Part shown: piece after piece, positions 4,415 through 16,788 of the stretch
Numbering within the stretch: the first letter of the stretch is position 1
Layout of the letters: the number at the start of each line of letters is the position of its first letter
Source: a virus
Taxonomy: Duplodnaviria; Heunggongvirae; Uroviricota; Caudoviricetes
Strand: one strand, 5' to 3'
Virus record (IMG/VR): IMGVR_UViG_2547132254_000003
Span: 1-33,007 of that record
Length of the DNA: 33,007 nt
Translations under genes and position numbers: made by a program
Notes under the pieces: generated by a model
Seen by the model: only the letters and a program-made list of their open reading frames with translations
What the model was told of the DNA's origin: nothing
Database searches by the model: none

Positions 4415-4467
4415 GGGCGGCAGAGCAGTCACGGAGTAAAACTGATACCGCCAAACGTCACCAGAAA
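4415..4467 (-). ncRNA. dicF: DicF-like small RNA (53 nt) followed by a T-run
   Basis: Reverse complement of 4415-4467 reads TTTCTGGTGACGTTTGGCGGTATCAGTTTTACTCCGTGACTGCTCTGCCGCCC followed by TTTTTA, which matches my memory of E. coli Qin DicF. Located in the leftward early operon. Confidence 0.65.
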
Positions 4468-10648: not shown

Positions 10649-11335
10649 ATGACCCCAATAAAAATATTTATGACTATTGCTGATTTCAAACGGCCTAAAT
10701 TGGAGCTCCCAAACGGGGCAAACAAACTACTACTGCACTCTTGCTGTGCTCCATGTTCCGGTGAAGTGATGGAGGCGCTTCAGGCCTCGGGAATCGACTA
10801 CACCATCTTTTTCTACAACCCGAACATTCATCCTCAGAAAGAGTATTTAATTCGTAAGGATGAAAATATTCGCTTTGCTGAACAACACGGCGTGCCGTTT
10901 ATCGATGCTGATTACGACACCGACAACTGGTTTGAACGTGCCAAAGGAATGGAATGGGAGCCTGAGAGGGGGATCCGTTGTACCATGTGTTTTGACATGC
11001 GTTTTGAGCGGACAGCGTTGTACGCTGCTGAAAATGGTTTCAGTGTGATCAGCAGTTCACTGGGCATTTCACGCTGGAAAAATATGCAGCAGGTTAACGA
11101 GTGTGGGCGGCGAGCTGTTGCGCATTATCCGGGTATGGTGTACTGGGATTATAACTGGCGCAAGCAGGGCGGCTCGTCCCGTATGATTGAAATCAGCAAG
11201 CGCGAAAAATTCTATCAGCAGGAATATTGTGGCTGTGTGTATTCTCTGCGCGATACCAATCTACACCGCAAATCTCAGGGACGCCCTCTTATCAAAATTG
11301 GCCAACTCCACTACGGAAAAGAAGAGAAGGAGTGA
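10649..11335 (+). CDS. DUF208/QueH-like protein (epoxyqueuosine reductase-like), 228 aa
   Basis: N-terminal [11 protein letters not shown] cysteine motif and further conserved cysteines (CTMC, CGC) recalled from the QueH family; candidate promoter TTGACA ... TACACT in the upstream intergenic region, so it looks like a moron. Confidence 0.5.
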
Positions 11336-11514
11336 TTTTATGGATCACCTTTCTGATTGATTTTATATTGGCGAGGTAACGGGAGTTAAGTAGAATGGCT
11401 GCGGGTGCTTGAGGCTATCTGTCTCAGGCATGAACACCAAAGGCAGATAGAGAAAAGCCCCAGTTAACATTACGCGTCCTGCAAGACGCTTAACATTAAT
11501 CTGAGGCTCAATCT

Positions 11515-11727
11515 ATGAACGGCAAATCTAGGTTAGCCTCTTACGTGCCGAAAGGCAAGGAGAAGCAGGCTATGAAGCAGCAAAAGGCGATGTTAATCGC
11601 CCTGATCGTCATCTGTTTAACCGTCATTGTGACGGCACTGGTAACGAGGAAAGACCTCTGCGAGGTACGAATCCGAACCGGCCAGACGGAGGTCGCTGTC
11701 TTCACAGCTTACGAACCTGAGGAGTAA
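11515..11727 (+). CDS. mok: Mok-like in-frame leader ORF overlapping hok, 70 aa
   Basis: In-frame upstream extension of the Hok ORF with GAGG upstream, analogous to chromosomal mokC/hokC organisation. Confidence 0.45.
   Translation: MNGKSRLASYVPKGKEKQAMKQQKAMLIALIVICLTVIVTALVTRKDLCEVRIRTGQTEVAVFTAYEPEE
11572..11727 (+). CDS. hok: Hok/Gef-family type I toxin, 51 aa
   Basis: MKQQKAMLIALIVICLTVIVTALVTRKDLCEVRIRTGQTEVAVFTAYEPEE: single TM helix plus the conserved RKDLCEV-IRTGQTEVAVFTAYE core of Hok/Gef; AAGGAG upstream of the ATG. Confidence 0.8.
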   Translation: MKQQKAMLIALIVICLTVIVTALVTRKDLCEVRIRTGQTEVAVFTAYEPEE

Positions 11728-11790
11728 GAGACCTGGCGGGGGAGAAATCCCTCGCCACCTCTGATGTGTCAGGCATCCTCAACGCACCCG

Positions 11791-11799
11791 CACTTAACC
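11791..11799. repeat. Left copy of the 9-bp target site duplication (CACTTAACC) of IS10
   Basis: Identical 9-mer immediately flanks both ends of the IS10 element. Confidence 0.8.
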
Positions 11800-13128
11800 C
11801 TGATGAATCCCCTAATGATTTTTATCAAAATCATTAAGTTAAGGTAGATACACATCTTGTCATATGATCAAATGGTTTCGCCAAAAATCAATAATCAGAC
11901 AACAAAATGTGCGAACTCGATATTTTACACGACTCTCTTTACCAATTCTGCCCCGAATTACACTTAAAACGACTCAACTGCTTAACGTTGGCTTGCCACG
12001 CCTTACTTGACTGTAAAACTCTCACTCTTACCGAACTTGGCCGTAACCTGCCAACCAAAGCGAGAACAAAACATAACATCAAACGAATCGACCGATTGTT
12101 AGGTAATCGTCACCTCCACAAAGAGCGACTCGCTGTATACCGTTGGCATGCTAGCTTTATCTGTTCGGGCAATACGATGCCCATTGTACTTGTTGACTGG
12201 TCTGATATCCGTGAGCAAAAACGGCTTATGGTATTGCGAGCTTCAGTCGCACTACACGGTCGTTCTGTTACTCTTTATGAGAAAGCGTTCCCGCTTTCAG
12301 AGCAATGTTCAAAGAAAGCTCATGACCAATTTCTAGCCGACCTTGCGAGCATTCTACCGAGTAACACCACACCGCTCATTGTCAGTGATGCTGGCTTTAA
12401 AGTGCCATGGTATAAATCCGTTGAGAAGCTGGGTTGGTACTGGTTAAGTCGAGTAAGAGGAAAAGTACAATATGCAGACCTAGGAGCGGAAAACTGGAAA
12501 CCTATCAGCAACTTACATGATATGTCATCTAGTCACTCAAAGACTTTAGGCTATAAGAGGCTGACTAAAAGCAATCCAATCTCATGCCAAATTCTATTGT
12601 ATAAATCTCGCTCTAAAGGCCGAAAAAATCAGCGCTCGACACGGACTCATTGTCACCACCCGTCACCTAAAATCTACTCAGCGTCGGCAAAGGAGCCATG
12701 GATTCTAGCAACTAACTTACCTGTTGAAATTCGAACACCCAAACAACTTGTTAATATCTATTCGAAGCGAATGCAGATTGAAGAAACCTTCCGAGACTTG
12801 AAAAGTCCTGCCTACGGACTAGGCCTACGCCATAGCCGAACGAGCAGCTCAGAGCGTTTTGATATCATGCTGCTAATCGCCCTGATGCTTCAACTAACAT
12901 GTTGGCTTGCGGGCGTTCATGCTCAGAAACAAGGTTGGGACAAGCACTTCCAGGCTAACACAGTCAGAAATCGAAACGTACTCTCAACAGTTCGCTTAGG
13001 CATGGAAGTTTTGCGGCATTCTGGCTACACAATAACAAGGGAAGACTCACTCGTGGCTGCAACCCTGCTTACTCAAAATCTATTCACACATGGTTACGTT
13101 TTGGGGAAATTATGAGGGGATCTCTCAG
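11800..13128 (+). mobile_element. IS10 (IS4 family), 1329 bp, intact, with terminal inverted repeats
   Basis: Left end CTGATGAATCCCCTAATGATTTT (IS10 outside end), right end reverse complement CTGAGAGATCCCCTCATAATTTCCCC (inside end); length 1329 bp; flanked by a perfect 9-bp direct repeat. Confidence 0.9.
11907..13115 (+). CDS. IS10 transposase, 402 aa
   Basis: Full-length ORF, MCELDILHDSLYQFCPELHLKRLN... matching my recollection of IS10/Tn10 transposase almost residue for residue; no frameshift or stop. Confidence 0.9.
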   Translation: MCELDILHDSLYQFCPELHLKRLNCLTLACHALLDCKTLTLTELGRNLPTKARTKHNIKRIDRLLGNRHLHKERLAVYRWHASFICSGNTMPIVLVDWSDIREQKRLMVLRASVALHGRSVTLYEKAFPLSEQCSKKAHDQFLADLASILPSNTTPLIVSDAGFKVPWYKSVEKLGWYWLSRVRGKVQYADLGAENWKPISNLHDMSSSHSKTLGYKRLTKSNPISCQILLYKSRSKGRKNQRSTRTHCHHPSPKIYSASAKEPWILATNLPVEIRTPKQLVNIYSKRMQIEETFRDLKSPAYGLGLRHSRTSSSERFDIMLLIALMLQLTCWLAGVHAQKQGWDKHFQANTVRNRNVLSTVRLGMEVLRHSGYTITREDSLVAATLLTQNLFTHGYVLGKL

Positions 13129-13137
13129 CACTTAACC
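13129..13137. repeat. Right copy of the 9-bp target site duplication (CACTTAACC) of IS10
   Basis: Identical to 11791-11799. Confidence 0.8.
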
Positions 13138-13208
13138 CGCTTCGGCGTTTTTTCCGTTGATTAACTCTAGTTATTAGAGAACCGAACTTTTATTGATGGG
13201 GCAGGGAG

Positions 13209-13601
13209 ATGAAGAAACTTGTTTTAGTCGCAGGTGTAATGATTGCAACAGTAATGTTGGGAGGGTGTGCAGCAAAGATCGATCCAGCGTTGAAAGCAGA
13301 AGCAATGAAGCCACTAACATGTAATGATGAAAAGCAATGTGACTTTTATTGGAAACGAGCGCAATTCTGGTTGGCTAATAATTCCTCATGGAAAATTCAA
13401 ACGGCGACAGACACGCTAATTTCCACTTATAATCCCTCTCCAAATAGTCCATTCCTCGCTTATCAAGTGAGTAAAATGCCAAATGAAGATGGATCCTCAA
13501 GAATTTTCATCAAGCCTTTTTGCGATAATATGTTTGGCTGTCAACCAAACCCCTATCAGGCAGTTGTTTCCTTTAAAAACTTCGTTAAAACAGGGCAGTA
13601 G
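13209..13601 (+). CDS. Predicted lipoprotein, 130 aa, unknown function (moron)
   Basis: Signal peptide with lipobox LGGC; two extra cysteine pairs (CNDEKQC and CDNMFGC) suggesting periplasmic disulfides; GGGAG upstream; own terminator downstream; AT-rich surroundings. Confidence 0.6.
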   Translation: MKKLVLVAGVMIATVMLGGCAAKIDPALKAEAMKPLTCNDEKQCDFYWKRAQFWLANNSSWKIQTATDTLISTYNPSPNSPFLAYQVSKMPNEDGSSRIFIKPFCDNMFGCQPNPYQAVVSFKNFVKTGQ

Positions 13602-16478: not shown

Positions 16479-16554
16479 GGCCCTTTAGCTCAGTGGTGAG
16501 AGCGAGCGACTCATAATCGCCAGGTCGCTGGTTCAAATCCAGCAAGGGCCACCA
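16479..16554 (+). tRNA. tRNA with anticodon CAU, Ile2 (lysidine)-like, 76 nt, CCA encoded
   Basis: Cloverleaf folds by eye; anticodon loop CUCAUAA; close to my memory of E. coli ileX. Ile versus Met cannot be decided from the anticodon alone. Confidence 0.75.
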
Positions 16555-16555
16555 G

Positions 16556-16632
16556 CCGCCACTAGCTCATCAGGAAAGAGCGTCAACCCTTTAAGTTGAG
16601 TGTGCGAGGTTCGAGTCCCCGGTGGCGGTCCA
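16556..16632 (+). tRNA. tRNA-like gene, 77 nt, noncanonical anticodon loop; identity uncertain
   Basis: All stems pair except one A-C mismatch in the T-stem; anticodon loop CCUUUAA has C at position 33 (normally U), giving nominal anticodon UUU; begins with C1-G72. Confidence 0.5.
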
Positions 16633-16634
16633 GT

Positions 16635-16710
<76 letters not shown>

Positions 16711-16713
16711 TAT

Positions 16714-16788
<75 letters not shown>

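Follow-up and report, generated by a model that had tools for sequence, protein, structure and literature searches.

E. coli K-12 is known, as a textbook oddity, for insertion sequences (IS) lying just outside the reading frames of its hok toxin genes, and an earlier note on the DNA studied here had pointed to them, in agreement with the K-12 annotation and with the literature (PMC3562002). At hokC (gef)/sokC and hokE/sokE, IS186A and IS186B, respectively, follow an intact hok ORF at distances of only 19 and 18 bp from its stop codon, leaving the antisense gene intact. The IS186 junction at hokC falls inside GGCGGGGAGTGATCCC, within a GC-rich hairpin, and the fold-back inhibitory element (fbi) and the terminator are thus parted from the ORF, the fbi motif being found beyond IS186. 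This insertion has been read as disrupting the normal folding and processing of the hokC mRNA, while transcription and antisense control persist and the mRNA ends inside the IS (PMC3562002). At hokA/mokA/sokA, IS150 also adjoins the hok ORF but lies upstream of it, where it interrupts mokA and sokA, which are annotated as pseudogenes, and destroys the 5' regulatory region. Two further systems complete the picture, namely hokD (relF) of the Qin prophage, which is annotated with relE directly upstream, and hok/sok of plasmid R1, with its tac/fbi pairing, its switch to tac/ucb and SD/dcb pairing after 3' trimming, its mok-coupled translation and its antisense RNA over the mok start.

Here we describe a hokD-type locus, located in a 33,007-nucleotide stretch of Caudoviricetes DNA (the window), in which a different IS has inserted at a different cut point, after fbi and not before it. 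As at hokC and hokE, the element lies within the hok transcription unit and outside the ORF, 72 bp past the stop codon and before the terminator. Unlike these two loci, the one in the window is prophage-borne and of hokD type. In contrast to hokC, its fbi stands upstream of the IS and, as IS10 lies distal to fbi, only the terminator has been separated from the coding part. The 5' regulatory region destroyed by IS150 at hokA is untouched here. Regarding what inserted where, and which elements were kept, we are nearly certain; the complete account, i.e., a recent IS10 insertion into a hokD-type 3' UTR that displaced the terminator alone and mildly attenuated the toxin, is in our view about evenly balanced between right and wrong.

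The hok/sok module appears complete. The toxin gene (11572 to 11727, plus strand) encodes 51 residues, all 51 identical to those of K-12 HokD (RelF), and the mok/hok ORF matches the Pfam family HOK_GEF with 81.6 bits (cut-off 22), which agrees with the earlier reading of an intact member of the Hok family. The 70-residue mok frame (11515 to 11727, plus strand) is in frame with hok, its start codon aligns with that of K-12 mokC and it is preceded by a GAGG Shine–Dalgarno (SD) sequence at 11504-11507. A candidate hok/mok promoter, TTGGCG-17 nt-TAGAAT (11368 to 11396, plus strand), reached 9 of 12 consensus positions in a promoter scan; upstream of K-12 hokB, an equal promoter geometry is found (TAGGAT, 6 nt, GGGTGCC). 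For a transcript start at 11403, chosen on the basis of the Rfam match and of where the -10 hexamer lies, the mRNA leader, which extends from tac up to the AUG of hok (11403 to 11577, plus strand), corresponds to Rfam RF01794 on the hok-sense strand and scores 110 bits (gathering score 59) over model positions 1-157 of 157. On the minus strand, a Sok antitoxin RNA is predicted at 11447 to 11523, with coordinates carried over by alignment from the annotated K-12 sokC; it overlaps the SD and start codon of mok, and the region contains a 13-bp hairpin followed by GGGGCUUUUCU, a U-rich tail. Where the earlier note had expected a sok promoter on this strand, a candidate (TTGCCT-17 nt-TAACCT, 11530 to 11558) can indeed be read from the sequence, with a -10 hexamer ending 7 nt ahead of the transferred Sok 5' end. 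Its match to the consensus is weak and falls under the promoter-scan threshold, and for this reason we treat this promoter as putative. Despite IS10, tac, ucb, dcb, the predicted sok, mok, the hok gene itself, the putatively protective GC hairpin and fbi stand contiguous.

Compared with its namesake in K-12, the locus shares an identical Hok and a nearly identical 3' UTR, including fbi and the terminator region. Upstream of a point some 20 nt ahead of the AUG of hok, however, the aligned K-12 hokD sequence no longer resembles the leader (tac, ucb, mok start and sok region), which the window has in full. The architecture predicted here is the same as that of plasmid R1 hok/sok, and the copy in the window differs in being chromosomal, prophage-borne and interrupted at its 3' end.

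The inserted element spans 11800-13128 on the plus strand (1329 bp), its outside end adjoining hok at 72 bp from the last base of the stop codon (11727). It is bounded by CTGATGAATCCCCTAATGATTT at 11800 (outside end) and, in reverse complement, by CTGAGAGATCCCCTCATAATTT at 13128 (inside end), i.e., by the imperfect terminal repeats, one outside and one inside, expected of IS10, a 1329-bp insertion sequence of the IS4 family; these are the only two matches to IS10 ends in the window, where shuffled sequences lead one to expect none. The transposase gene (11907-13115, plus strand), found in the ORF list as well as by Pfam (DDE_Tnp_1, 87 bits) and NCBIfam (IS4 family, 402 bits), encodes 402 residues and is intact, as had been proposed. 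Asp 97, Asp 161 and Glu 292, which we take to be the catalytic DDE positions, are all present. Over its full length, the element is 99.9% identical to the copy of plasmid R100, from which it differs by one base, and 99.9% identical to iso-IS10R on pCP301, comparisons which assign it to the IS10R type. It likewise differs by 1 nt from the copy encoding WP_001352368.1. The base that departs from R100, a private A-to-T change at 11979, converts Ser25 of the transposase into Cys.

Two copies of the 9-bp sequence CACTTAACC, and no others, are present in the window, at 11791 to 11799 and at 13129 to 13137, immediately outside the outside and inside ends, respectively, in line with the perfect target duplication, the IS10 identity and the 72-bp spacing given by the earlier note. 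In genomes with an empty site, it is present as a single copy. When the empty site was rebuilt by joining 11300-11799 to 13138-13600, which removes IS10 and one repeat, it matched at least 16 complete E. coli genomes with 100% identity along all 963 bp. That IS10 entered by simple insertion and duplicated 9 bp of its target is thereby demonstrated directly, and the perfect identity of the flanks marks the transposition as real and recent. Judged by these flanks and by the single nucleotide separating the element from the R100 copy, the transposition is recent, as had been supposed from the duplication and the undamaged transposase.

The event is also rare. The IS10-hok junction was absent from 5426 complete E. 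coli genomes and from three contig collections scanned for exact matches (genome_contigs, metagenome_contigs and viral_contigs, the latter with both junctions). IS10 has a target preference, not a requirement, and CACTTAACC fits four of the six specified positions of the strict form NGCTNAGCN and three of the four of the relaxed form NPuCNNNGPyN (PMC4574204). Since the insertion is private to one genome and its target only partly fits the consensus, we see no sign of selection for it, and it is probably a neutral transposition, an ordinary strain-private event that leaves the understanding of hok/sok and IS10 unchanged. Regarding a possible hotspot, the best copy of the hokD type in each record, counted once, covered at least 80% of an ORF-to-terminator query in 4780 of the 5020 matching records, and a spread sample of 60 rows contained no IS-truncated copies of high identity; on these two grounds, we see no signal that 3' UTRs of the hokD type are repeatedly interrupted by IS.

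Several candidates for related events were examined and rejected. Three genomes in which 33 bp of the right flank seemed to lie by IS10, as a shared older insertion followed by rearrangement would leave it, proved to be a spurious alignment extension; they carry an unrelated IS10 in a sulfatase gene by ydeM, with the duplication TACTACGCT. In JKHS004, the sole record joining IS10 and hokD across 80% or more of the query, IS10 lies some 370 bp upstream of another copy of hokD and is flanked by the duplication TGTTAATTA; this represents an independent event. Finally, the label 'mobile element protein' placed by hok in several phage records corresponds, in the record examined, to a 44-aa ORF call with no IS.

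What the insertion did to the 3' end of the hok mRNA is central, as the earlier note implied that IS10 parts the 3' pairing element from the message. This mechanism finds no support in the position of fbi (CCUCAAcGCACCC, 11777 to 11789, plus strand), which is wholly left of IS10 and kept 10 nt upstream of it. The note would have given up its proposal had both the pairing element and the terminator lain upstream of 11791; the former does, and the latter does not. Indeed, alignment of the flank to K-12 hokD and to the copy of phage vB_EcoS-640R1 places the intrinsic terminator (CC-CGC-UUCG-GCG-UUUUUU) at 13136 to 13153, plus strand, beyond IS10. This hairpin with its T-run, shifted by 1338 bp, is the only hok element displaced, and the insertion point falls within the 5' arm of the K-12-type terminator stem. 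The stem has 3 bp in the window allele as against 5 bp (CCCGC/GCGGG) in K-12 hokD and, as it was already weak before the insertion, its displacement may change little. Between the stop codon and fbi, fold predictions identify a GC-rich hairpin, UGGCGGGGGA-GAAA-UCCCUCGCCA (11734 to 11757, plus strand), predicted to be the protective 3' hairpin of the processed (Tr) hok mRNA, in which the last stem-loop has a described role (PMC9841398); its counterpart at K-12 hokC is the hairpin that houses IS186.

Folding of the two mRNA ends, which had been proposed as a check, indicates that the closed form is available. In the intact allele, tac (GGGUGCUUGAGG, 11403 to 11414, plus strand) is predicted to pair with fbi with a probability of about 1.0 through 12 pairs and one bulge, a pairing backed by two compensatory changes with respect to K-12 hokB. 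The full-length fold, modelled from a start 6 nt upstream of 11403, has a z-score of -7.2 with paired 5' and 3' ends, and in the predicted full-length structure the ucb anti-SD box (the AAGCCCC region, 11453 to 11461, plus strand) base-pairs with the SD of mok. With the 3' end truncated (11403-11759), the prediction switches to tac/ucb (11453-11461) and SD/dcb, in agreement with the published R1 model (PMC9841398). For chimeric hok-IS10 transcripts, with the reservation that thermodynamic folds of such long molecules are unreliable, tac/fbi pairing was predicted with a probability of at least 0.9 for five of the seven 3' ends modelled (12000, 12100, 12300, 12500 and 13155) and was lost for those at 12200 and 12800 (0.22 and 0.03), the 5' end of the mRNA pairing instead with ucb in the former and with IS10 sequence at 12730-12740 in the latter.

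IS10 also brings its own transcription to the locus. RNA-OUT (11845 to 11914, minus strand), which runs from pOUT towards hok, matches Rfam RF00240 at full length with 97.3 bits (gathering score 41) and covers IS nucleotides 115 to 46; its course from 11914 to 11845 bears out the suggestion that pOUT fires leftwards, antisense to hok; sok is oriented the same way. Read-out from pOUT into flanking DNA is reported to amount to about 10% of lacUV5 (PMC9330008), and outward promoters at both ends of IS10 are described (PMC4574204). In Salmonella, the same outward promoter placed beside host DNA activates acrEF (PMC9330008). Here, by contrast, pOUT reads antisense to the neighbouring gene, so repression would be expected rather than activation.

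Based on these elements, we propose that hok transcripts would run into IS10 and lose their defined, hairpin-protected 3' end, while the inert closed tac/fbi fold could still form in the hok mRNA, so that the toxin would not be unleashed. The pool of stable full-length hok mRNA, which is the basis of hok systems, would probably be smaller or heterogeneous, and read-out from pOUT across the hok 3' UTR and ORF may add repression by convergent transcription and by duplex formation. With Sok intact, the locus, already under tight repression, would most likely be mildly attenuated on balance, fitness being affected little or not at all. Mild attenuation or no effect, rather than activation, is most likely. 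Since many genomes, such as that of APEC IMT5155, have the empty site, they form with the IS10 allele a natural allele pair in which dependence on the terminator and a defined 3' end could be distinguished from dependence on the fold-back element.

Among the alternatives, the one that survives best, a possibility we would rank clearly below an even chance, is that the insertion is functionally silent, 3'-to-5' exonucleases trimming the IS10 tail down to the tac/fbi helix and regenerating full-length-like and truncated species. The retention of fbi and of every upstream regulatory element speaks for it, the original terminator was already weak, and there may be little hok function to lose, as the chromosomal hok loci tested gave no post-segregational killing and have been suggested to be inactive (bioRxiv 10.1101/2025.08.07.668861). 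Nevertheless, the loss of 3' hairpin protection and the convergent activity of pOUT are expected to alter the stability of some transcripts (PMC9330008; PMC9841398, for 3' hairpin mutants), and K-12 gef with IS186 yields a visibly different, longer mRNA (PMC3562002).

The prophage, rather than the toxin, might be the consequential target. In empty-site genomes, the locus is annotated as QueH-hokD-hypothetical protein, and in the one examined further, the module lies inside a lambdoid E. coli prophage, between QueH and ydfU-like/RusA/Q genes. Placed between the replication genes and the Q antiterminator of the rightward early operon, an IS of 1.3 kb could then exert polarity, lower the expression of late genes and help to lock the prophage in, an effect compatible with the other readings. 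Gene order is favorable to this idea, as the locus in the matching empty-site genome separates the replication-region genes and QueH from DUF968, RusA and Q, and the ORFs downstream of IS10 in the window run on into what we take to be lysis, terminase, portal, capsid and tape-measure genes. However, IS10 is intergenic and lambdoid antitermination usually overrides internal terminators, and we regard such polarity as unlikely.

Upward deregulation of hok has still less to recommend it and appears very improbable. The 3' extension, being unprotected or competing, would hasten the removal of fbi or open the closed fold, giving more translatable truncated mRNA and more Hok, with a membrane-depolarisation or persister-type phenotype as its consequence. 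The transcript has indeed lost the terminator hairpin from its normal end, and its 5' end left fbi in two of the seven chimeric models. Yet fbi is transcribed ahead of all IS10 sequence, and the closed fold should therefore form first; the predicted Sok and its target region are intact, and it is the truncated mRNA to which Sok binds and which it destroys (PMC9841398); pOUT, reading antisense, should oppose expression; and the host, whose toxin ORF is undamaged, survives.

A more elaborate proposal, to which we attach very little probability, makes IS10 and the toxin module a coupled regulatory unit, in which the pOUT antisense would act as a second, IS-supplied antitoxin and read-in from hok would damp the transposase. 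It is scarcely probable, in particular, that pOUT read-out yields a long antisense RNA, some 470 nt in length, which spans the 3' UTR and ORF of hok and stops at the terminator of sok, and just as doubtful that read-in from the hok promoter crosses the outside end of IS10 and damps both transposase expression and end activity. If true, the insertion would silence a prophage toxin and stabilise the IS at its site.

Least probable of all is a non-native IS10, arising by transposition into cloned DNA or into a laboratory culture, or as an artefact of assembly: IS10 resides in widely used laboratory E. coli hosts and has been documented to cause cloning artefacts (PMC4574204), the junction was absent from the 5426 complete genomes and the three contig collections, and the copy carries a private SNP, but IS10 is also common in natural E. 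coli (in 1174 of these 5426 genomes, 80% or more of the query is covered by a copy), a natural event would equally well leave a clean 9-bp duplication at a plausible target, and the window shows no hint of vector sequence. As a matter of nomenclature, the NCBI PGAP pipeline calls the IS10R-type element ISVsa5.

IS10 entered the site next to hok by simple transposition, duplicating 9 bp of target, and a matching empty site gives direct evidence of this. The element, complete over 1329 bp (11800-13128), has both ends matched, with the outside end CTGATGAATCCCCTAATGATTT at 11800 and the inside end, in reverse complement CTGAGAGATCCCCTCATAATTT, at 13128; the window holds no third match to an IS10 end, and shuffled sequences gave none. 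The window has exactly two copies of the 9-mer CACTTAACC (11791-11799 and 13129-13137), each touching IS10. When the empty site was rebuilt by joining 11300-11799 to 13138-13600 (i.e., removing IS10 and one repeat copy), the resulting 963 bp matched at least 16 complete E. coli genomes at 100% identity, APEC IMT5155 and AR_0077 among them, confirming the perfect target duplication claimed in the earlier note. In these genomes, the segment is annotated QueH - hokD - hypothetical protein, and in IMT5155 it lies within a lambdoid prophage adjoining tRNA-Ser and mtfA, flanked by replication-region genes on one side and by the DUF968, RusA and Q genes on the other. As previously described, IS10 is intact with a full-length transposase (11907-13115, 402 aa; Pfam DDE_Tnp_1 and NCBIfam IS4-family model matches), whose residues 97, 161 and 292 are Asp, Asp and Glu, which we take to be the catalytic triad.

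Over its full length, IS10 is 99.9% identical to the best-matching IS10 copy of plasmid R100 and to the 'iso-IS10R' of pCP301. Compared with the IS10 copy that specifies the common transposase WP_001352368.1, it has one substitution only, A to T at IS nt 180 (window 11979, Ser25Cys), and no 100% identical copy was found among the best matches in PLSDB or 5426 complete E. coli genomes. This private substitution may be genuine or may stem from a sequencing error. IS10 at the same hokD site is absent from the 5426 genomes, and exact-junction scans of three contig collections gave no match; as far as seen, the insertion is private to the source of the window. Zero flank divergence, together with the single private IS10 substitution, supports a recent transposition, as had been suggested. 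The target, which agrees with the IS10 consensus NGCTNAGCN (PMC4574204) at 4 of its 6 specified positions, appears to be an acceptable site and not a hotspot. Of note, E. coli JKHS004 (NZ_CP147069.1; L001 4001-6086) carries an independent IS10 with duplication TGTTAATTA, ~370 bp 5' of the leader belonging to a different prophage copy of hokD; among the 5426 genomes, no further close pairing of IS10 with hokD was seen.

By sequence comparison, the hok/mok/sok module is apparently complete, unlike K-12 hokD, whose similarity to the window leader stops ~20 nt 5' of the hok AUG and whose immediate upstream neighbour in the annotation is relE. The Mok/Hok frame (11515-11727; Pfam HOK_GEF, 81.6 bits) and the 51-aa Hok (11572-11727), identical to E. 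coli K-12 HokD/RelF, bear out the claim of an intact toxin gene, and IS10 indeed starts 72 bp beyond the stop codon ending at 11727. The Tyr47 codon TAC (11710-11713) is in a TACG context, the TadA recognition motif. A-to-I recoding to Cys has been reported in hokB, and something comparable in hokC, hokD and hokE (bioRxiv 10.1101/2025.08.07.668861), and by analogy RNA editing may be required for full activity of the toxin at this locus. Upstream, a promoter-like TTGGCG-17-TAGAAT (11368-11396, promoter scan) places the hok mRNA 5' end at ~11403, and the whole leader is matched at 11403-11577 (+) by Rfam RF01794 (110 bits, full model length). Although this family is named 'sok antitoxin (CssrC)', the match is to the hok-sense strand and spans everything between the mRNA 5' end and the hok AUG; RF01794 in effect models the hok leader rather than an antisense RNA. 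Sok itself is predicted at 11523-11447 (minus strand), where annotated K-12 sokC aligns. For the sok promoter expected on this strand, a candidate was located, TTGCCT-17-TAACCT, ending 7 nt upstream of the mapped Sok 5' end, but its consensus match is weak and we regard it as putative.

The rebuilt intact hok mRNA folds far more stably than shuffled controls (z = -7.2), and in its predicted fold the 5' element tac GGGUGCUUGAGG (11403-11414) pairs with the 3' fold-back inhibitory element fbi CCUCAAcGCACCC (11777-11789; P ~1.0). For an RNA cut after the GC-rich hairpin predicted at 11734-11757, a switch is predicted to tac pairing with the anti-SD box ucb (11453-11461), while the mok SD GAGG (11504-11507) would pair with dcb (11535-11540). 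An equivalent switch has been described for hok of plasmid R1 (PMC9841398); that of the window comes from predicted folds. The tac/fbi assignment is supported by K-12 hokB, where GGGUGCC-UGAGA paired with UCUCAuGGCACCC amounts to two compensatory double changes, and by K-12 hokC, where a matching CUUCAAcGCACCC motif lies on the far side of IS186.

Alignment to the uninterrupted loci of K-12 hokD and phage vB_EcoS-640R1 identified the hok terminator, immediately 3' of CACUUAA, as CCCGC-UUCG-GCGGG plus a U-run. In the window allele (13136-13160) and all empty-site genomes, its 3' arm has 2 nt fewer (CGC-UUCG-GCG with U6 behind it), giving a stem of 3 bp against 5 bp (CCCGC/GCGGG) in K-12 hokD and the phage (L004 2530-2560, L005). 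Similarity to these loci stops exactly at the 3' arm, which points to a prophage mosaic junction inside the terminator. The IS10 insertion point is within the 5' arm of this stem and, owing to the 9-bp duplication, fbi and the next 10 nt stay with the left copy, and the terminator (13136-13153) with the right one. The observation of the earlier note is confirmed and its interpretation partly supported, the main correction being that the 3' pairing element is not lost: what IS10 takes away from the normal transcript end is the terminator.

Transcripts from the hok promoter would now read into IS10 through its outside end, replacing a short hairpin-terminated tail with a long, heterogeneous, largely untranslated 3' extension. 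In R1 hok, the integrity of the 3' hairpin governs sensitivity to 3'-to-5' exonucleases (PMC9841398). Since Sok is intact and destroys truncated hok mRNA, the form to which it binds, mild attenuation of hok is, in our model, most likely. RNA-OUT, matched by Rfam on the minus strand (11914 to 11845), confirms that the pOUT side faces leftwards, antisense to hok. Some pOUT transcripts, at ~10% of lacUV5 strength, are reported to reach neighbouring DNA (PMC9330008); such read-out would cross the hok 3' UTR and ORF in antisense, in the same direction as sok, and would favour repression. Modelled chimeric RNAs behaved unevenly, though most agreed: those ending at 12000, 12100, 12300, 12500 and 13155 (the old terminator) keep tac/fbi pairing (P >= 0.9), and those ending at 12200 and 12800 lose it (P 0.22 and 0.03). 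As fbi is transcribed ahead of all IS10 sequence, the RNA should first adopt its closed, untranslatable fold. The K-12 gef/IS186 mRNA is longer, ends inside the IS and keeps antisense control (PMC3562002). That IS10 leaves hok unaffected is a strong second to attenuation, and activation of hok is unlikely.

IS elements adjoining, but outside, hok ORFs are already annotated in K-12, as the earlier note stated: IS186 follows the stop codons of hokC and hokE by 19 and 18 bp, against 72 bp for IS10 here, and IS150 is found at hokA. In hokC, IS186 interrupts the GC hairpin and leaves fbi on its far side; that fbi of the window is on the hok side of IS10 is the chief difference from the IS186 cases. 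At hokA (L010 2449-4112), IS150 lies 5' of the ORF and divides mokA and sokA, each annotated as a pseudogene; the K-12 cases, upstream for IS150 and downstream for IS186, are mechanistically heterogeneous. This locus adds a case to them, with another element (IS10), another position (after fbi, in the terminator) and a prophage-borne hokD-type module. The finding is otherwise ordinary. The best copy per record spans 80% or more of the ORF-to-terminator query in 4780 of the 5020 matching records, so interruption is not recurrent for hokD-type hok. The two alleles offer, modestly, a natural pair to test the role of the hok terminator apart from fbi.

Polarity of IS10 on the prophage early operon is possible. 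Directly 3' of the displaced terminator is a predicted 130-aa lipoprotein (13209-13601, +; signal sequence ending LGGC), matching no Pfam family but PHROG 16082 (function unknown), whose expression could be influenced by an outward promoter at the IS10 inside end. Immediately 5' of hok, the prophage carries as cargo an epoxyqueuosine reductase QueH (10649-11335, +; Pfam 221 bits; PHROG 3217, function unknown), and its early-left region holds a DicF sRNA gene (4415-4466, -; Rfam 76.7 bits). Finally, a cluster of four tRNA genes (16479-16788, +; Met-CAT, Lys-TTT, Thr-TGT and Gly-TCC) immediately follows the ORF that occupies the Q antiterminator position; in the related IMT5155 prophage, Met-CAT is annotated as tRNA-Ile.
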